A DNA stretch of 64,000 nt from Candidatus Omnitrophota bacterium (GTDB taxonomy: Bacteria; Omnitrophota; Gorgyraeia; Zapsychrales; Fredricksoniimonadaceae), in NCBI GenBank assembly GCA_015233335.1, contig JADFXX010000005.1, positions 65,550 to 129,549 on the forward strand, written 5' to 3'. Positions within the stretch are counted from its first letter, which is position 1, and each line of letters begins with the position of its first letter. The notes beneath the pieces were generated by a model. The model saw nothing but the letters and a program-made list of their open reading frames with translations. It was not told the origin of the DNA and searched no databases. A program made the position numbers and the translations under genes. Shown here in pieces: positions 18,077-61,669 of the stretch.

Positions 18077-18085
18077 GAGGGTTAA

Positions 18086-18673
18086 ATGGATACTTCGGGC
18101 AGAAAAGATTATTTTAAAAATTACATCAAGCATTTACATGAGATTTTGATGGGGCTGGACCTCCATGAGGTGGAAAAGGTCGTAGACTGTTTTTTATTAG
18201 CCCGCAAGAACAAAAGGACCATTTTTTTTATCGGTAACGGAGGCAGTGCGGCGACGGCTTCCCATTTTGCGCAGGATATCGGAGAGGTCGGAAGAAAAGC
18301 AAAGGTCACCGGATTTAAATCTTTGAGTTTGACGGACAACACATCCCTGATCACCGCCGCCGCAAATGACCATGGCTATGACAAGATATTCACGGTCCAG
18401 CTCGAAGAGCTTTTTAGCCCCGGGGATGTGCTGGTCGCTATTTCTGCCAGCGGCAACAGCCCTAATGTTGTCAGTGCCGTGGAATTTGCGAAAAAGGCAG
18501 GGGGTATAACCATAGGGTTTATTGGATTTAGCGGCGGGAAACTTAAAAGTCTTTGTGAGCATGTCATTCATGTAAAAACCCAGATCGGTGAATATGGGCC
18601 CGTAGAAGATGTTCATTTGATCATGGACCATCTTATTCAATCTTATTTGATCTCCCTGCTGTCTGATAAATAA
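18086..18673 (+). CDS. SIS-domain sugar-phosphate isomerase (GmhA-like)
   Basis: 195 aa; IFFIGNGGSAATASHFAQDI and LVAISASGNSPNV blocks as in phosphoheptose isomerase-type SIS proteins; AGGAGGG RBS. Confidence 0.8.
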   Translation: MDTSGRKDYFKNYIKHLHEILMGLDLHEVEKVVDCFLLARKNKRTIFFIGNGGSAATASHFAQDIGEVGRKAKVTGFKSLSLTDNTSLITAAANDHGYDKIFTVQLEELFSPGDVLVAISASGNSPNVVSAVEFAKKAGGITIGFIGFSGGKLKSLCEHVIHVKTQIGEYGPVEDVHLIMDHLIQSYLISLLSDK

Positions 18674-51361: not shown

Positions 51362-51446
51362 AGCATGCTTTTTTCACACTAGCAGGGATGAATAGGTGTT
51401 ATGTATTCGGCACAATCTGGAATTTTCTTGTAAAAAGTCTGCGAGG

Positions 51447-51487
51447 TTTCACGGGAAAAGTAGTATCTGTCCCTACTTTTCGTGAAA
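51447..51487 (+). other. Long intergenic hairpin (15 bp with a 2-nt bulge)
   Basis: TTTCAC-GG-GAAAAGTAG (51447-51463) pairs with CTACTTTTC-GTGAAA (51473-51487) around a 9-nt loop TATCTGTCC; no adjacent U-tract. Confidence 0.45.
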
Positions 51488-51507
51488 TAGAAAATTGCGG
51501 CGGGTGG

Positions 51508-51628
51508 CTCGGAATTGATGTTACGGGGCGGACGGTGACTGCCCCAAAGTCCGATTAAGGTAAATCCCTGTTCTTTGCTGCTTTAACGTCCGCGTTTCAA
51601 TTAGGAGCACCGTAACATCAAGGCCGAG
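51508..51628 (+). repeat. Imperfect-palindrome structured intergenic element, copy A
   Basis: 12-bp stem TTGATGTTACGG (51515-51526) / CCGTAACATCAA (51610-51621), extended by CTCGG (51508-12) / CCGAG (51624-28), encloses an 83-nt interior. It shares the AGGAGCACC 9-mer and a GCGNACGG..CTGC block with the reverse complement of the element at 59423-59547. Confidence 0.6.
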
Positions 51629-51663
51629 ACAGGCCCCGCGGGCAGATTATTTACGGATTAGAT

Positions 51664-53836: not shown

Positions 53837-55039
53837 ATGCGAGATGTGTTGACTTTTATTTTAGCCGGCGGAAAAGGTGAACGCCTAGACCCCTTGACCC
53901 GTGACAGGGCCAAGCCTGCAGTGCCTTTCGGCGGGATTTACCGTATTGTTGATTTTTCGCTTTCTAATTGCGTTAATTCCGGCTTGCGCCGTATTTTTCT
54001 TTTGACTCAGTATAAGTCTTTTTCCCTGCAGAAGCATATCTTAGAAGGCTGGAACATCTATTCTAATCAATTAGGCGAATTCATTGATGTGGTACCGGCC
54101 CAACAGCGCATTTCCAGCGATTGGTACCGCGGCACCGCAGATGCTATTTACCAGAATTTGAATATTGTCGGTGATTATGATCCTAAACGGGTGCTGATTC
54201 TAGCAGGTGATCACGTTTATAAAATGGATTACCGCAAGTTGATCGAATATCACATGAGTAAGAATGCTGACATGACGGTTGCCTGCATTGCCATGCCCAA
54301 GCAGGATTCTATTCATTTTGGAGTGGTTCAGGTTGACAAGCATAATATGGTTGTCGGTTTCCAGGAAAAGCCGGAAACACCTAAGACCATCCCTGCCAAC
54401 CCTGACGAAATTTTTGGCTCTATGGGGATTTATTTATTCAATGCCGATGTGCTGAAGAAAGAATTGATCACTGATGCGGGCAAGATCGATTCCGACCATG
54501 ATTTCGGCAAGAACATCATTCCTCAGATGGTCGCCCGGAAACTTAAAGTATTCGCCTATGATTTTGCCAAGGAAAATACTTCTTCTTATTGGAGAGATAT
54601 AGGGACCCGCGATTCGTATTATCAGGCCAATATGGACCTGTGCGGGGCTAACCCTCAATTTAATTTGTATGAGAAGGCATGGCCCTTGCGGACACACCAT
54701 CATCATTACCCTCCTTTGAGAGTTTATACAACTGGGAAGACTCCGGGAACGATTGTTGACTCCTTGGTTGCCGGCGGCTGTGTTTTAGAAAGCGGCCGGA
54801 TCGAACATTCGGTTGTCTCTAATAATGTGGTTATCAAAGACGGTGTTTTGATTAAGAATTCCGTGATTATGGATGGGGTGACTGTCGGCCGCGGGACTCA
54901 GATCCAGGGGGCGATCATTGATAAGGACGTGGATATCCCCGCAGGAACTAAAATTGGTTTTAATCCGGAACTGGATCGCCAGCGTTTTGTGTTGACGACT
55001 TCCGGGATTGTCATTGTTGCCAAAAAAACATCTTTATGA
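53837..55039 (+). CDS. glgC: Glucose-1-phosphate adenylyltransferase
   Basis: ILAGGKGERLDPLTRDRAKPAVPFGG, WYRGTADAIYQN and C-terminal left-handed beta-helix-like repeats. ATG at 53837 (after the upstream stop) preferred over 53807. Confidence 0.9.
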   Translation: MRDVLTFILAGGKGERLDPLTRDRAKPAVPFGGIYRIVDFSLSNCVNSGLRRIFLLTQYKSFSLQKHILEGWNIYSNQLGEFIDVVPAQQRISSDWYRGTADAIYQNLNIVGDYDPKRVLILAGDHVYKMDYRKLIEYHMSKNADMTVACIAMPKQDSIHFGVVQVDKHNMVVGFQEKPETPKTIPANPDEIFGSMGIYLFNADVLKKELITDAGKIDSDHDFGKNIIPQMVARKLKVFAYDFAKENTSSYWRDIGTRDSYYQANMDLCGANPQFNLYEKAWPLRTHHHHYPPLRVYTTGKTPGTIVDSLVAGGCVLESGRIEHSVVSNNVVIKDGVLIKNSVIMDGVTVGRGTQIQGAIIDKDVDIPAGTKIGFNPELDRQRFVLTTSGIVIVAKKTSL

Positions 55040-55052
55040 TATTTTGTTGCGC

Positions 55053-56243
55053 ATGATTATTCAGCCAAAAATCCGAGGTTTTATCTGTATTACCGCCCAT
55101 CCGCTGGGTTGTGCTGCCCATGTGGCAGAGCAGATTCAATATTTGCAATCGCGAAGTCCTATCAGCGGCGGCCCTAAGAAAGTTTTAGTGATCGGGGCCT
55201 CAACGGGTTATGGCCTAAGCTCGCGGATTACTGCGGCTTTTTCCTGCGGGGCTGCGACTATGGGGGTATTCTTTGAAAAGCCGTCTGACGGTATCCGAAC
55301 GGCAACACCCGGTTGGTATAATTCAGCGGCCTTTGAAGCCCAGGCTAAAAAAGCGGGTCTTTATTCTCGGAGTTTCAATGGTGACGCCTTTTCTGACGGG
55401 ATGCGGCAGGATGTTTGCAAAGCGATCAAAGAGGATTGGGGACAGGCAGACTGCGTCATTTATTCACTGGCCTCTCCCAGAAGGATGGACCCTAAAACCG
55501 GTGCTATTTATAAATCGGCCATTAAGCCTAAAGGCGCTCCTTATAAAAACAAGACTATTGATTTTGAAAACGTTCAGGTCATTCCGATCCTTTTAGAACC
55601 GGCAACAGAACAAGACATCGCAGAAACTGTTAAGGTCATGGGAGGAGAAGATTGGCAGTTGTGGATCGAGGCCCTGACTGCAGAGAATTTGTTGGCACCT
55701 AAAGCCGTGACGGTGGCGTATTCTTACATCGGTCCGGATGTGACAAAACCGGTTTACCGCAACGGGACTTTGGGGGCGGCTAAAGACCATCTTGAGGCGA
55801 CAGCTCAACGGCTCGATCAATTAATGCAGAAACAGGGCGGGCGAGCCTTGGTGTCTGTTAATAAAGCCCTGGTCACCCAGAGCTCTTCGGCCATTCCTTT
55901 TATTCCCCTGTATTTTGTCATTTTGATGAAGGTCATGAAACAAAAGGGTTTAAATGAATATTGTATTCATCAAATGTATCGTCTTTTTAGCGAGCGAGTG
56001 TACAATGGGCGGCCTTTATCGCAAATTCCCGTTGACGATCGTGGGCGTATACGCATCGACGATTGGGAAATGCGCTCTGACGTCCAAGAAGAGGTCAGGC
56101 ACCTCTGGGAGCAGGTTGATAGCGGGAATCTCCCTAAGGTGGCGGACATCCAAGGGTATAACGATGATTTTTTAAGACTTTTTGGTTTTGGTTTTTCTGG
56201 GGTGGACTATAATGCTGAGGTCAACCCTGAAGTGTCTTTGTAA
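55053..56243 (+). CDS. fabV: trans-2-enoyl-CoA/ACP reductase (FabV/Ter family)
   Basis: MIIQPKIRGFICITAHPLGCAAHVAEQI N-terminus and VLVIGASTGYGLSSRI block are diagnostic of FabV/Ter. ATG at 55053 preferred over 55008. Confidence 0.85.
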   Translation: MIIQPKIRGFICITAHPLGCAAHVAEQIQYLQSRSPISGGPKKVLVIGASTGYGLSSRITAAFSCGAATMGVFFEKPSDGIRTATPGWYNSAAFEAQAKKAGLYSRSFNGDAFSDGMRQDVCKAIKEDWGQADCVIYSLASPRRMDPKTGAIYKSAIKPKGAPYKNKTIDFENVQVIPILLEPATEQDIAETVKVMGGEDWQLWIEALTAENLLAPKAVTVAYSYIGPDVTKPVYRNGTLGAAKDHLEATAQRLDQLMQKQGGRALVSVNKALVTQSSSAIPFIPLYFVILMKVMKQKGLNEYCIHQMYRLFSERVYNGRPLSQIPVDDRGRIRIDDWEMRSDVQEEVRHLWEQVDSGNLPKVADIQGYNDDFLRLFGFGFSGVDYNAEVNPEVSL

Positions 56244-56271: not shown

Positions 56272-57426
56272 ATGATCGACTATTTGCTGACAGAAGAACA
56301 AATCATGATTCGTGACCTGGCTCGTCAGATTACAGATGAAAAAATTCGTCCTGTAGCGGCCGAATATGACCGTACCGAGAAATTCCCATGGGGGATTATG
56401 AAGGATATAGCCCAAGCAGATCTTTTTGGGGTCTATATTGAAGAGAAATACGGCGGGTTGGGCGGCGGTATATTGGAGTTATGCCTTGCAACAGAAGAAT
56501 TTTCCAAGGGATGCGCGGGGATTGCCATCTGTTATTCTGCATCTGCTTTGGGGACGTATCCCATCATTTTGGCCGGTAATGAGGAACAGAAGAAAAAGTA
56601 TCTTCCGTCAATCGCCAAAGGAGAGAAGCTGGCGGCCTTTGGCCTTACAGAACCTGCCGCTGGTTCAGATGCCAGCGCTCTTCAAACAACTGCAGAAAAA
56701 AAGGGGGACCATTACGTCCTTAATGGGCTTAAACATTTTATCACCAACGGAGGAGATGCGGATATCTATACGGTCATTGCGATGACTGATAAATCGAGAG
56801 GTGCTCGCGGGGCCAGTCTTTTTGTCGTTGAAAAAGGCACGCCGGGTTTCACTTTTGGTAAAAAGGAAGACAAGATGGGAATCCGCGCGTCTTCGACCTG
56901 TGAACTGGTTTTTAATAATTGCAAGATCCCTGCAGAGAATCTGTTGGGAAGAGAAGGAATGGGCTTTATTAGTGCGATGAGGACTTTTGATATGTCCCGT
57001 CCGGGGATAGGCGCCCAAGCCGTCGGTATTGCTCAGGGGGCGTTGGATGAGGCGATTAAGTTTGCCAAGCAAAGAAAGCAGTTTGATAAACCCATCTCCA
57101 GTTTTCAGGGGATCCAATGGATGCTTGCGGACATGGCGACACAGACAGAAGCAGCCCGGGCCCTGGTTTATGCATCAGCCAGAGAAGTGGGCGCCGGAGT
57201 GAAGGATGTTGGCGTGCATTCGGCCATGGCTAAAATGTATGCTTCGGATGTGGCGATGAAGGTCACTACAGATGCGGTTCAGATCTGCGGCGGTTACGGG
57301 TATATGAAAGAATATCCTGTCGAGAAATATATGCGAGATGCCAAGATTACGCAAATTTATGAAGGCACAAATCAGATCCAGCGCAATATCATCGGCATGG
57401 GATTAATCAGAGAGAGCTCTAAATGA
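56272..57426 (+). CDS. Acyl-CoA dehydrogenase (short-chain/butyryl-CoA type)
   Basis: 384 aa; FGLTEPAAGSDA, QIYEGTNQIQR and overall ACAD-like sequence. Confidence 0.9.
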   Translation: MIDYLLTEEQIMIRDLARQITDEKIRPVAAEYDRTEKFPWGIMKDIAQADLFGVYIEEKYGGLGGGILELCLATEEFSKGCAGIAICYSASALGTYPIILAGNEEQKKKYLPSIAKGEKLAAFGLTEPAAGSDASALQTTAEKKGDHYVLNGLKHFITNGGDADIYTVIAMTDKSRGARGASLFVVEKGTPGFTFGKKEDKMGIRASSTCELVFNNCKIPAENLLGREGMGFISAMRTFDMSRPGIGAQAVGIAQGALDEAIKFAKQRKQFDKPISSFQGIQWMLADMATQTEAARALVYASAREVGAGVKDVGVHSAMAKMYASDVAMKVTTDAVQICGGYGYMKEYPVEKYMRDAKITQIYEGTNQIQRNIIGMGLIRESSK

Positions 57427-58205
57427 ACATTATCATTTGCGTTAAACAAGTTCCGGATACCTCTGAAGTCAGGATTGATCCGGTCACGAACAATCTAGTT
57501 AGAGATGGAGTTAAATCCATCGTCAATCCTTTTGACATGTATGCCATCGAGGAGGGTTTGCGTCTTAAAGAAAAATTCGGCGGCAAGGTCACTGTCCTTA
57601 CGATGGGCCCCCCGCAGGCAGAGGCTGCTTTGAGAGAGGCTATTTCTCTGGGCTGTGATGAGGCTGTCTTGGTCAGCGATCGCGCTTTTGCCGGTTCAGA
57701 TACCTTGGCCACTAGTTATACTTTATCTAAAGCAATCGAGAAGATCAAAGATTACGATCTGATCATTTGCGGCAAGCAGGCTATTGACGGTGACACGGCC
57801 CAGGTGGGGCCCGGGATTGCAGCGACACTAGATATTCCTCAGATCAATTATGTACGCAAGGTCGAAGAGATCAAAGACCAAACTATAACGGCTGAACGCG
57901 TCACAGAGGAAGGTTATGAAGTCATCCAGTCAACGTTGCCCTGCCTTTTGACGGTGGTGAAGGAAATCAATAATCCTAGGCTTCCTTCTTTAAAGGGAAA
58001 GATGAAAGCCAAAAGTGCGGTTATTCAGGTTTGGAGTGCTGCGGATATCGCGGCCGCCGAAGACCGTATAGGGCTCAAGGGTTCGCCGACATGGGTGTTA
58101 AACATTTTTACACCTCCGCCCAAACCTAGGGGGAAAATATTTGAAGGCGAAGCACAAAATTCTGTTAATCAACTTGTTGAATCTTTAAAGGGGATAATTC
58201 ATTAA
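57423..58205 (+). CDS. etfB: Electron transfer flavoprotein beta subunit
   Basis: 260 aa; MNIIICVKQVPDTSEVRIDPVTNNLVRDGV, SDRAFAGSDTLATSY, CGKQAIDGDTAQVGP blocks; ATGA overlap with the ACAD gene. Confidence 0.9.
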   Translation: MNIIICVKQVPDTSEVRIDPVTNNLVRDGVKSIVNPFDMYAIEEGLRLKEKFGGKVTVLTMGPPQAEAALREAISLGCDEAVLVSDRAFAGSDTLATSYTLSKAIEKIKDYDLIICGKQAIDGDTAQVGPGIAATLDIPQINYVRKVEEIKDQTITAERVTEEGYEVIQSTLPCLLTVVKEINNPRLPSLKGKMKAKSAVIQVWSAADIAAAEDRIGLKGSPTWVLNIFTPPPKPRGKIFEGEAQNSVNQLVESLKGIIH

Positions 58206-58206
58206 T

Positions 58207-59403
58207 ATGAGCGGGATTACTGTTTATAAAGATAAATGTACGGGTTGTTCGCTTTGTGCCAAGGCATGTCCTTTTGACGCCATCACGATGGTTGACAAGA
58301 AACCTGTGATTGATTTAGACAAGTGTACCCTGTGCAGTTCCTGTGTAGAGGCCTGCCGCAAGTTTGGGGCCGTCGAAATCATACGCACGACAACCCAAAC
58401 ACCGGATATAGAAAAATACAAAGGGGTTTGGGTTTTTGCGCAACAGAGAAAAGGTGTCGTCCAGCCGGTCACCTACGAATTGCTGGGGAAGGCCCGTGAG
58501 CTTGCGGATAAACTGAAAGTCGATGTGACCTGCGTTCTATTGGGACACAATATTAAAGACAAGGCTCAGGACTTGATTTTCCGCGGGGCCGATAAAGTTT
58601 ATGTGGTGGATCATCCTAAGCTTGAGCATTTGCTGGAAGAGCCGTATGCGCGGATTGTTTCGAATCTTATAAGAAAACACAGGCCCGAGATCTTTTTGTG
58701 TCCGGCCACCAGTGTGGGAAGATCAGTGATCTCGAGAGTTGCGGTCCAGTTACGCGTTGGCCTGACAGCGGATTGCACGGGTTTGGACGTTAATGTGGAT
58801 GAACGATATCTGATGCAAACGCGGCCTGCTTTCGGCGGAAGTATTATGGCTACGATCCTGTCAAAACATCACAGACCGCAACTTGCCACGGTCCGTCACA
58901 AAGTGATGAAAGAAGCAAGTGCAGACCCCTCAAGAAAAGGCGTCATTGAAGTTGTCGAATTTGACAACACCTTTTTTATCTCAAGGACAAAGGTCCTGAA
59001 TGTGGTTGATGAAGTGACCTCAACGGTCAATATCGGCGAAGCCAACATAATCGTCGCGGGCGGACGGGCCATGGGGGGCAAAGAGAATTTTAAAATGCTT
59101 GAAGACTTGGCAAAGGTTTTAAACGGTGCAGTGGGCGCTTCACGTGCCGCTGTTGATGAGGGATGGGTGCCTTATTCCCATCAGGTCGGGCAGACCGGGA
59201 AGACCGTATGTCCGACTATTTACATTGCTTGCGGCATTTCCGGCCAGATCCAGCATCTTGTGGGGATGCAATCCTCGGATGTGATCATCGCGATCAACAG
59301 GGATCCGGCCGCTCCGATTTTTAATGTCGCTAATTACGGGATTGTCGGCGATGTCTTTGAGATCGTGCCCCTTTTAACAAAACGATTTCAAGAAGTTCTA
59401 TAA
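58207..59403 (+). CDS. etfA: Electron transfer flavoprotein alpha subunit with N-terminal 2x[4Fe-4S] ferredoxin domain
   Basis: 398 aa; CTGCSLCAKACP and CTLCSSCVEAC cluster motifs in the first 60 aa, then an EtfA body (IVAGGRAMGG, YIACGISGQIQHLVGM). Confidence 0.9.
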   Translation: MSGITVYKDKCTGCSLCAKACPFDAITMVDKKPVIDLDKCTLCSSCVEACRKFGAVEIIRTTTQTPDIEKYKGVWVFAQQRKGVVQPVTYELLGKARELADKLKVDVTCVLLGHNIKDKAQDLIFRGADKVYVVDHPKLEHLLEEPYARIVSNLIRKHRPEIFLCPATSVGRSVISRVAVQLRVGLTADCTGLDVNVDERYLMQTRPAFGGSIMATILSKHHRPQLATVRHKVMKEASADPSRKGVIEVVEFDNTFFISRTKVLNVVDEVTSTVNIGEANIIVAGGRAMGGKENFKMLEDLAKVLNGAVGASRAAVDEGWVPYSHQVGQTGKTVCPTIYIACGISGQIQHLVGMQSSDVIIAINRDPAAPIFNVANYGIVGDVFEIVPLLTKRFQEVL

Positions 59404-59422
59404 ATACACGAATCGTGAGGTC

Positions 59423-59547
59423 TCATTAGCCTCAACATTAAGGTGCTCCTCAAGCGGGGGCAACCCTGACGGCAGCTTCGATGGTGGTTACCCCTCAACC
59501 GCCCCCATGTGCAGGTGCCGTGCGCGCCTTAATATTGAGGCTAATGA
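59423..59547 (-). repeat. Imperfect-palindrome structured intergenic element, copy B (inverted relative to copy A)
   Basis: 21-position stem TCATTAGCCTCAACATTAAGG (59423-59443) / CCTTAATATTGAGGCTAATGA (59527-59547) with one C/A mismatch, enclosing an 83-nt interior. Its reverse complement aligns without gaps to copy A. Confidence 0.6.
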
Positions 59548-59577
59548 CACTTTGCTTGACAAAAGAAAGATAAATTT

Positions 59578-61221
59578 ATGAGCAATGACAATTTGATCGA
59601 AACGGACGTTTTAGTGATCGGCGGTGGACCTGCGGGACTGGCCTTTGCCATCCATTATGCGGATCTTAGCAAGAAAAACAATCTTCCTATAAAGGTCATG
59701 ATACTCGAGAAGGCTGCAGTGCTCGGTAATCATACTCTTTCCGGGGCTGTTATGAATTTAAAGAATATCAGCCAACTATTGCCGGATGTTGATCTTACAA
59801 CCATTCCTACCCAAACTCCGGTCCAGCAAGAAGAGATCTTGTTTTTAACAAAGAAAAATGCCTTTGCCCTGCCGTTTCATCCCAAGGCCATGTCTAATAA
59901 AGGCAACCATATTTTATCTTTAGGGGCCATGGTCCGCTGGCTTGGGCAAATTGCCGAACAAAAAGGAGTTGAGATATTTGCCGGAGTCGCAGGGCATGAA
60001 CCTATTTTTGAGAATGGCAAATTGGTTGGTGTTTTTACAGGTGCGTCGGGACTCGATCATGAAGGCAAACCGATGGCCAATTACCAACCGCCCACGGAAG
60101 TCAGGGCAAAGATCATTATTTTGGCTGAAGGGTCCAGAGGCCATTTGACGAAGAAACTGATCGAAAAATATAGTTTAGCGCAAGATAAGAATCCGCAGGT
60201 CTATTCGCTGGGCGTTAAAGAAGTTTGGGAAGTCCCGGAAGGCGCTTTTCTTCAGGGACGTGTTTGCCATACTCTTGGATTTCCACTTAGCAGCGACCAA
60301 TTCGGTGGCGGCTTTGTTTACGGTTTTAGTAAAACACAGGTAGTCATCGGTTTTTGTTCTGGCCTCGATTATTCAAATCCAGCCTTTGACCCTCATGGTG
60401 CGCTACAAATGTACAAGACACATCCACGGATCGCAGGGATCATCAAAAATGGCAAGCTCATCAAGTATGGGGCAAAGAATATCCCGGAAGGGGGATTGTT
60501 CTCCCTGCCTAAGCTCTATCATGATAATTTTATGCTGATCGGTGATGCCGCCGGGATGGTCGCAATGCCGAGTTTAAAGGGGATCCATTTAGGGATAAAG
60601 GCGGGCATGACCGCGGCCCAGGCGGCTTTTGAGGCGATCAAAGCCCAAGACACTTCAAAAGAAACCTTAAGTCTATATGAAAAATTATTTAAAGATACAC
60701 CTGAATACCGTGAATTGTATGCCTCCCGGAATTTCCGCCAATGTTTCACATCTAATTTATATTTTGGGTTCTTAAAGTTCGGTATCAATCTCATAACAGG
60801 AGGTCGAGGGCTTTCATTAAGCGGAAAATCGAAATTGGAGGCTGATTATAAACATTGCGAGACAGCATCCAAAGACAATCATTTACCGAAGGTTGCCTTT
60901 GACAACAAGATGCTTTTTGATAAAGAAGCGGATTTGTTCTTTTCCGGGACTAAGCACAATGAGGAACAACCTTGCCATATACTTATTTCGAGCAGGGATA
61001 CCTGCGTTGATTGTATAGAACGTTTTGAAGCCCCTTGTCAGCATTTTTGTCCGGCCCAGGTGTTTGAATTAAGCCGTGATGCTCAAACCAATAAGGGAAA
61101 GATTATTTTACACCCCTCGAACTGTGTCCACTGTAAAACATGTGACATCAAAGATCCCTTCCAAAATGTGACCTGGGTGCCTCCCTATGGCGCTGATGGC
61201 CCGCAGTATGACAACATGTAA
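59578..61221 (+). CDS. Electron transfer flavoprotein:quinone oxidoreductase (ETF-QO)
   Basis: 547 aa; FAD fold DVLVIGGGPAGLAFA; C-terminal 4Fe-4S region CVHCKTCDIKDPFQNVTWVPPYGADGPQYDNM typical of ETF-QO. Confidence 0.9.
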   Translation: MSNDNLIETDVLVIGGGPAGLAFAIHYADLSKKNNLPIKVMILEKAAVLGNHTLSGAVMNLKNISQLLPDVDLTTIPTQTPVQQEEILFLTKKNAFALPFHPKAMSNKGNHILSLGAMVRWLGQIAEQKGVEIFAGVAGHEPIFENGKLVGVFTGASGLDHEGKPMANYQPPTEVRAKIIILAEGSRGHLTKKLIEKYSLAQDKNPQVYSLGVKEVWEVPEGAFLQGRVCHTLGFPLSSDQFGGGFVYGFSKTQVVIGFCSGLDYSNPAFDPHGALQMYKTHPRIAGIIKNGKLIKYGAKNIPEGGLFSLPKLYHDNFMLIGDAAGMVAMPSLKGIHLGIKAGMTAAQAAFEAIKAQDTSKETLSLYEKLFKDTPEYRELYASRNFRQCFTSNLYFGFLKFGINLITGGRGLSLSGKSKLEADYKHCETASKDNHLPKVAFDNKMLFDKEADLFFSGTKHNEEQPCHILISSRDTCVDCIERFEAPCQHFCPAQVFELSRDAQTNKGKIILHPSNCVHCKTCDIKDPFQNVTWVPPYGADGPQYDNM

Positions 61222-61243: not shown

Positions 61244-61669
61244 TTAATTGGGGCAATAAGTAGGATGAGCAGGGTAGGCACAGCTGGGGTTATTATTTTT
61301 TACGATCGCGGCGTTTCTTACCGCTAGGACGAAAGTGTTATCCGATGTGTTTGTTGCTGTACAGGTGAATCCTGTAACATTGCTGCAGGTATAATTGAAG
61401 TACGCGTCGGTAATTTGTGTCTTGAGGTTTCCGTTGATATTAGCAAGGGTTGAGCAGTTATTAGGGAAGGTGCCAAAGCAATAAGCACCGTTATTGTAAT
61501 AGAAGGTCTTTTGAGCGCCATAAATTGTTATTAAATTGTTTTGGGCAGCATTGGCCTCTCCTTGCAGGATGTTAGCCGTATAACTGGGGAGAATGATAGC
61601 CGTTAAAACTCCTATAATAATTGTAGCCACTAATATTTCAATTAAGGTAAATCCTTTTTTGCCGATCAT
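61244..61669 (-). CDS. Type IV pilin-like / pseudopilin protein with prepilin N-terminal methylation motif
   Basis: 141 aa; MIGKKGFTLIEILVATIIIGVLTAIILP (G|FTLIE class III signal). The C-terminal half has 6 Cys and several N-x-S/T triplets; GAGAGGTGG RBS. Confidence 0.8.
   Translation of the reverse strand: MIGKKGFTLIEILVATIIIGVLTAIILPSYTANILQGEANAAQNNLITIYGAQKTFYYNNGAYCFGTFPNNCSTLANINGNLKTQITDAYFNYTCSNVTGFTCTATNTSDNTFVLAVRNAAIVKNNNPSCAYPAHPTYCPN

Follow-up and report, generated by a model that had tools for sequence, protein, structure and literature searches.

The palindrome between etfA and the ETF-QO gene of a Candidatus Omnitrophota bacterium is probably a lineage-specific insertion of a dispersed MITE-like repeat

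In a Candidatus Omnitrophota bacterium (assembly GCA_015233335.1, contig JADFXX010000005.1), the gap between the stop codon of etfA and the start of the ETF-QO gene at 59578 measures 174 nt and is filled by a palindromic element, which raises the question of whether this element is a regulator that belongs to the operon or an insertion that happens to lie in it. All positions given here are those of the window, the whole stretch of 64,000 nt that was analysed, unless a locus is named. A first-pass annotation of the window had described the gene order, the gap, the element (copy B) and a second copy (copy A), and had offered copy B as an insulator, an attenuator, an mRNA-stabilising structure or the origin of an antisense RNA controlling ETF-QO expression. 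Pfam searches confirmed the gene run TER/FabV, ACAD, EtfB, EtfA and ETF-QO, and the coordinates confirmed that the element fills the gap (Table 1). Directly 3' of the ETF-QO gene, on the opposite strand (61244-61669), lies a gene whose product is a minor type IV pilin (PF16732, ComP/DUS-receptor family), and relatives carry at the same position a gene for a pilin-like protein whose N-terminus has a methylation motif.

Table 1. Coordinates of the operon genes and the repeat copies in the window, target-site duplications (TSDs) of family copies, and etfA/ETF-QO junctions of relatives. L-numbers denote the loci compared.
Feature	Position	Strand	Basis or description
TER/FabV gene	55008-56243		Pfam
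ACAD gene	56272-57426		Pfam
EtfB gene	57423-58205		Pfam
etfA (Fd-EtfA, 398 aa, N-terminal 2x[4Fe-4S] ferredoxin domain)	58207-59403	+	Pfam; stop codon 59401-59403
ETF-QO gene	59578-61221	+	Pfam; product 100% identical to a Candidatus Omnitrophica MAG protein
ETF-QO ribosome-binding region	59562-59577	+	AAAGAAAGATAAATTT; native, outside the element; homologous to AAAGAGGAACAATTTT in L147
Copy A, A subfamily, end motifs intact	51496-51646	+	Family profile, E 3.7e-41
Copy B, core-only form	59405-59550	-	nhmmer with the 52-copy family profile, E 4.4e-28
Copy B, outer-stem arm 1	59420-59446		21-nt arm of the first-pass annotation: 59423-59443
Copy B, outer-stem arm 2	59524-59550		21-nt arm of the first-pass annotation: 59527-59547
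Copy B, 77-nt non-palindromic interior	59447-59523	-	Contains the GGGGGC/GCCCCC helix; family blocks read GCGCACGGCACCTGC ... AGGAGCACC on the sense strand
Copy B, decayed 3' end motif	59414-59424	-	GAGACCTCACG versus family GACAGGMCCCGCG (alignments)
Copy B, decayed 5' end motif	59548-59555	-	GCAAAGTG versus family GCGGGTG (alignments)
TSD of L068			8 bp, ATTTGATA / ATTTGATA, directly outside the terminal repeats
TSD of L071			8 bp, AAAGAGGG / AAAGAGGG, directly outside the terminal repeats
TSD of L057			8 bp, TTGGATAA / TTGGATAA, directly outside the terminal repeats
TSD of L023			8 bp, AGGGCCAG / AGGGTCAG, directly outside the terminal repeats
TSD of L126, divergent copy with ends GGTTCTTTTG			8 bp, AATTAAAA / AATTAAAA
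Junction in L001 (GCA_015233675.1)			75-nt spacer; not significantly similar to the element, p=0.74
Junction in L002-L004			etfA and ETF-QO overlap (ATGA)
Junction in L005 / L006			etfA and ETF-QO overlap
Junction in L149 / L150			etfA and ETF-QO overlap
Junction in L147 / L148, closest relative			41-nt spacer; same 398-aa Fd-EtfA, same downstream genes

The palindrome itself was read directly from the sequence and is real. The inverted repeat of copy B has arms of 27 nt that are 89% complementary and lie 77 nt apart, and within the window the 21-nt arm sequence was found only at the two arms themselves (plus strand at arm 1; minus strand, with one mismatch, at arm 2), with 0 chance matches expected. 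The mismatch, C at 59436 and A at 59534, is a C/A mismatch on the plus strand and a G.U wobble on the minus strand, and the interior helix is formed by GGGGGC (59456-59461) and GCCCCC (59501-59506). Relative to shuffled sequences both strands fold strongly (plus strand -65.9 kcal/mol, z -6.1; minus strand -67.3 kcal/mol, z -6.6). The hairpin lies 17 nt after the etfA stop codon, and about 28 nt separate it from the start codon of ETF-QO.

Copy A is situated in sense between an ABC ATPase gene and a TPR gene, whose start codon follows after about 24 nt. Its arms (51497-51529 and 51607-51639) enclose 77 nt, as in copy B. The plus strand of copy A aligns without gaps to the minus strand of copy B (67 of 143 columns identical), and the family profile matches copy A on the plus and copy B on the minus strand, confirming the opposite orientation of the two; they are the only copies in the window. 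The sense strand of the family thus runs antisense to the etf operon at copy B. The outer stems of the two copies differ in sequence, yet both pair. The site of copy A is empty in L001-L004, and no TSD could be called for it. Upstream of copy A, about 135 nt of extra DNA (51362-51496) is absent from the relatives; it has its own 17-bp hairpin at about 51446-51488 (TTTCACGGGAAAAGTAG / CTACTTTTCGTGAAA) and showed no similarity to any of the loci compared.

Whether copy B belongs to the operon was examined at the etfA/ETF-QO junction of relatives, which were collected as ETF-QO homologs at 80-84% identity and compared together with their flanks. Copy B is absent from the junction in all six distinct relatives. 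The annotation had itself named absence from this spacer, in close relatives of the same gene order, as the sign of a neutral insertion, and that absence extends to the closest relative, L147, which has identical local gene content. There, AAAGAGGAACAATTTT stands directly upstream of the ATG, and alignment shows that the etfA product ends in QEVL* exactly as it does in the window. Around copy B nothing is lost from the stop codon of etfA, the ribosome-binding region of ETF-QO or its start codon, and on this comparison the element is extra DNA within a spacer that was once about 41 nt long. A TSD duplicating the stop or start codon, or an etfA stop codon lying inside a terminal inverted repeat (TIR), was rejected, as the closest relative shows that both the QEVL* end and the ribosome-binding site are native. 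The 75-nt spacer of L001 was also considered as a degraded remnant of copy B and rejected on its similarity to the element, which is at the level of shuffles, and on the lack of a match to the family profile. The 398-aa EtfA with the N-terminal 2x[4Fe-4S] domain was seen in the window and in the closest relative (L147, 1263-2459); in other relatives, whose gene order is the same, EtfA has 334-335 aa and lacks the ferredoxin domain (L001, 8921-9925; L002, 9000-10004), and overlap of etfA with the ETF-QO gene is a feature of relatives with this shorter EtfA.

Searches beyond the window showed that copy B has many scattered relatives. A search pattern derived from inner motifs common to copies A and B matched 85 stretches in the genome collection, 13 of which are family copies, nearly all with the same 84-nt span, in four Candidatus Omnitrophota MAGs; eight of these are in nDJH13bin20, which has at least nine copies on five contigs. 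A related pattern matched 54 metagenome contigs, of which about 44 carry genuine family copies. The remaining matches (about 72 in genomes, 10 in metagenomes and one, L007, in the viral collection) were dismissed as chance matches in GC-rich or coding DNA. The core of the repeat is about 150 nt and its long form about 206-236 nt, with no gene inside. Copies A and B represent two subfamilies that co-occur in the same genomes, with 73-78% identity between and 85-95% within them. Copy B is 88% identical over 128 nt to L018 of nDJH13bin20, and has the lowest full-length profile score apart from L018b. Searches of Rfam 15 gave no match in the window at the gathering threshold, around copies A and B at E<=10, or with 20 diverse copies at E<=0.01. 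The family appears to be an undescribed, MITE-like repeat of a poorly known uncultured phylum.

Intact copies run from GCGGGTG(G) through the two stem arms to CAGGMCCCGC. The outer hairpin, which every copy can form, comprises 27 pairs, with 89% of cells paired and 15 of the 27 pairs changed on both sides; covariation was 0.232, compared with 0.116 in shuffles (reached in 0 of 500) and at most 0.087 with slid partners. Judged from the aligned copies, the outer hairpin is maintained by compensatory change. RNAalifold returned the outer stem as the only conserved fold; no interior fold common to the variants was found, the MFE folds of single variants being weak and inconsistent. The GGGGGC/GCCCCC helix belongs to the B subfamily and is not family-wide. 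The blocks GCGGACGG and AGGAGCACC, in a family whose search patterns forced some motifs to be invariant, are kept in three full-length copies that lie outside the stricter pattern, two of which match neither pattern.

Clear marks of transposition were found on the long form. In nDJH13bin20 it is bounded by TIRs of 13-16 nt (GGTTGTGTCAAAAG...TTTTGACAGAACC, also given as GGTTGTGTCAAAA...TTTTGACAGAACC; end sequence GGTTSTGTCAAAA), and a systematic scan found junctions with both TIRs and TSDs in 5 of 49 copies (5-6 long-form copies overall), whereas 0.3 were expected when left and right flanks were paired from different copies. TIRs together with TSDs of this kind are the mark of transposition mediated by a DDE transposase, and the TIRs and 8-bp TSDs of the long form indicate that it transposes. 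No transposase gene was seen adjoining the TIR matches in the examined loci. Most copies, A and B included, are core-only, with no recognisable TIR or TSD; in these, homology begins at GCGGGTG and ends at CCCGC. The outer flanks of copy B were tried as decayed long-form TIRs and rejected (flank similarity p=0.50 and 0.32). Mobility of the core-only form is suggested by cores that are almost the same in sequence while occupying unrelated loci of one metagenome (L095, L098, L111 and L112), where the flanks are not conserved, and by the empty sites, rather than by junction signatures. At one orthologous site, L101 and L103 have the same stems around different interior modules, which points to recombination or gene conversion among copies.

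The family has several of the features by which MITEs are recognised: small non-coding units in multiple dispersed copies, TIRs (in the long form), and orthologous sites that are occupied in one genome and empty in another. We consider it likely that copy B is a lineage-specific insertion of this small non-coding, hairpin-forming repeat, which is dispersed in a group of Candidatus Omnitrophota. Since the family is scattered and the element is missing from close relatives, an ordinary mobile-element insertion accounts for the spacer better than a dedicated etf regulator. On this reading the repeat entered the etfA/ETF-QO spacer of about 41 nt without damage to the stop codon, ribosome-binding site or start codon. 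Copy B itself is of the core-only form, its end motifs are decayed, and it lies in antisense, the orientation of the minority. The suggested role specific to etf or ETF-QO is thereby removed, and the spacer becomes a transposon scar in one lineage.

The gene pairs that flank copies elsewhere have little in common. They include dnaK|dnaJ, an unassigned gene and clpB, amtB|glnB, nuoK|nuoL, purB|purC and DUF1015|accD, as well as pterin dehydratase|Rrf2, YfhO|epimerase, yggS-like|proC, ABC|TPR and etfA|ETF-QO. The functional diversity of the neighbours (dnaJ, clpB, glnB, nuoL, accD, purC, Rrf2, epimerase, TPR and proC) excludes a riboswitch-type or gene-specific leader, and this candidate was rejected. 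An integron attC site was rejected as well: the R''/R' core sites (RYYYAAC...GTTRRRY) are lacking from copies that end in GCGGGTG...CAGGMCCCGC, and the copies stand singly and in both orientations between genes of housekeeping operons, not in cassette arrays of one orientation.

Among copies with two good flanks, 31 of 32 are between co-directional genes, and the next start codon follows at a median of about 22 nt. The strand corresponding to the plus strand of copy A lies in sense in 24 copies and in antisense in 7 (p=0.003), or in 42 and 11 (p=2e-5) when single-flank cases are included, and in 49 of 52 copies this sense strand is the one that folds better, the mean advantage being 6.5 kcal/mol; these counts are not independent, because the copies are related by descent, and a G-rich sense strand alone favours folding. 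The main non-Watson-Crick pairs are purine-purine, including a tandem 5'-GA/3'-AG in one stem type, and favour the sense strand only. The suggestion that the functional strand is of the copy A type, and hence antisense to the etf genes at copy B, agrees with both counts. The single G.U wobble that had been offered as its evidence does not carry it, since that wobble (columns 28/132) was inherited by the whole B subfamily of 20 copies and is not an independent observation; a family-wide comparison of G.U with A.C (36 versus 11, leaving out mis-registered cells) is likewise a weak strand test, dominated by one inherited site. Copy B belongs to the antisense minority and is one of the three exceptions in which the antisense strand folds better.

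The folding advantage of the sense strand, the orientation bias and the conserved non-palindromic blocks hint at selection at the RNA level beyond that expected of a purely selfish element. On the alternative reading, the hairpin of the core would have been exapted as a functional RNA module between cistrons (for example a protein-binding RNA, or a site for processing or stability), which was spread by transposition, homogenised by recombination and selected on its sense strand in operons, and copy B would act through its hairpin in spite of being inverted. Besides the folding, the orientation and the closeness to start codons, it would account for the compensatory changes in the stem, the mismatches that stabilise only the sense strand, the persistence of GCGGACGG and AGGAGCACC outside the stricter pattern, and cores that are conserved where flanks are not. 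Set against it are the shared descent of the copies and the G-rich sense strand noted above, the variants without a common interior architecture, the polymorphism of sites between relatives, and gene conversion, which can explain the conservation of the cores; copy B in particular is inverted and decayed and folds better on the antisense strand. We regard this alternative as unlikely. Also rather doubtful is the related proposal that the core of about 150 nt is a previously undescribed structured RNA of Omnitrophota, selected in sense just upstream of start codons in operons, hitch-hiking on TIR-bearing transposons and homogenised by recombination; if true, the core would be a mobile regulatory RNA (acting in processing, stability or protein binding) and not mere junk.

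The orientation of copy B also bears on the proposed antisense RNA. A small RNA encoded by, or originating in, copy B and controlling ETF-QO or etfA expression would suit a preferred family strand that runs antisense to this operon and a minus strand that folds stably. No sigma70-like promoter was found on either strand of copy B, with the caveat that the scanned consensus may differ from Omnitrophota promoters, and no terminator was found on either strand. At other sites the same strand is mostly co-directional with its flanks and fills the spacer, so it would be read through rather than transcribed independently, and all relatives examined lack the element at this junction. An antisense RNA is therefore highly improbable here. 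An attenuator or terminator role is disfavoured, as neither strand has a U tract after the hairpin; the terminator scan returned one terminator-like match, a weak internal stem occurring at the background rate of shuffles.

Under the preferred reading of an ordinary insertion, copy B would be read through within the etf operon mRNA, which is the most likely course given the lack of promoters and terminators on both strands and the co-directional flanking genes. The transcribed strand, antisense with respect to the family, would then fold into a hairpin of about -66 kcal/mol between the cistrons. Such a hairpin might have a generic effect, either as a barrier to 3' exonucleases or as a cleavage site for double-strand RNases, and cleavage or blocking of this kind would let the etfBA and ETF-QO parts of the message decay independently. 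Effects of this sort have been reported for Correia and ERIC elements, and by analogy with these and with REP elements (PMC3184786) copy B may affect mRNA processing or stability, in a way that would be at most generic. Most probably copy B is near-neutral at the etf site, as suggested by its decayed sequence, by an orientation uncommon in the family and by the empty junctions of relatives.

REP/BIME and REPIN elements are multi-copy hairpins between the cistrons of operons, and REP sequences stabilise mRNA 3' ends; REPs are palindromes of 20-40 nt linked to RAYT genes. The Omnitrophota unit differs in being larger, with a conserved interior, a long form with TSDs and no link to a RAYT gene. 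We nevertheless considered copy B as a REPIN or REP doublet mobilised by a RAYT (a Y1 HUH transposase), as its long hairpin is formed from two inverted arms, most copies are without a TSD, and a Y1_Tnp gene of the IS200/RAYT type adjoins ETF-QO in the relative L005 (11778-12455, minus strand, just downstream). That gene, the only Y1_Tnp seen, has no homolog in the window or at the other loci and is bounded by an unrelated palindrome of its own, AAAGTCGTGCCTGTCACGACTTT, and the family profile does not match its flanks. Moreover, the 77-nt interior is conserved and non-palindromic, neither arm is a conserved palindrome in itself, and the long form shows classic TIRs plus 8-bp TSDs, which HUH transposition does not make; this origin has hardly any likelihood. 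The palindrome AAAGTCGTGCCTGTCACGACTTT occurs on both sides of the L005 gene (11780-11804, 12589-12611 and 12649-12671) and recurs in L133 (2490-2510), L108 (4892-4915) and L145 (5076-5097). The L005 gene and this palindrome look like a separate REP/RAYT-like system, unrelated to the family of copy B.

A further parallel is offered by the Correia elements (CREE/NEMIS) of Neisseria, non-coding MITEs of about 100-160 bp with long terminal inverted repeats that form long hairpins; they are dispersed in intergenic spacers, frequently immediately 5' of genes, undergo co-transcription, and occupy sites that vary from strain to strain (PMC3184786). The Omnitrophota family is likewise hairpin-forming, non-coding, dispersed and polymorphic by site, whereas its sequence is unrelated and its long form duplicates 8 bp where Correia elements duplicate TA. 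Correia elements also contain an IHF site and promoters, none of which was detected in the Omnitrophota family. That family, for its part, has a 77-nt interior that is conserved and not palindromic, and its stems fall into several subtypes that co-exist. The ERIC/IRU elements of Enterobacteriaceae are imperfect palindromes of about 127 bp in transcribed intergenic regions of operons, and co-transcribed ERIC copies have been reported to alter mRNA cleavage and stability (PMC3184786). An effect at the RNA level is thus demonstrated for ERIC and would be conceivable for copy B by likeness, while the sequences and host phyla are unrelated and ERIC termini are TA-flanked.

Taken as a whole, the family shows signatures of transposition, compensated stem subtypes, exchange of modules and a preference for intercistronic sites in the sense orientation. 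Such elements are useful as strain markers, are a source of assembly and annotation artefacts, and are candidate natural modulators of operon expression; their orientation and strand asymmetry provide a testable hint of RNA-level selection.

A lead on the mobiliser of the long form comes from the ISL3-family transposon Tn7546, which has the inverted repeat GGGTCTTCGGA and an 8-bp TSD (PMC9782665). The ends of the long form, GGTTCTGTCAAAA / GGTTCTTTTG, likewise belong to GG-initiated TIRs with 8-bp TSDs, and an ISL3-type transposon is a candidate on this likeness, with the caveat that other IS families also make 8-bp duplications. In L071, a long-form terminal repeat (GGTTCTGTCAAAATTC, 314-329) stands alone just past the Rrf2 gene. 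A complete copy with the same orientation is 538 nt away, and the solitary repeat is either what is left of another insertion or a second possible end for transposition. L100, a contig of 1.7 kb, has two inverted copies (471-629, minus; 1458-1605, plus) that bracket proC (P5C reductase), a layout that is composite-transposon-like around a housekeeping gene. At the 3' end of L101 (oriented, about 330-370) the end motif is duplicated or interrupted (GACAGGACCCGCTGTCAGGACAGGACCCGATGA), and at the 3' ends of L098 and L145 12-30 nt are inserted before GACAGGACCC. In L001, a truncated copy consisting of a solo A-subfamily 3' arm and end motif (…TAATATCAAGACCAAGACAGGCCCCG…, 18084-18130) is located between the genes for ADP-forming acetyl-CoA synthetase and PFOR.
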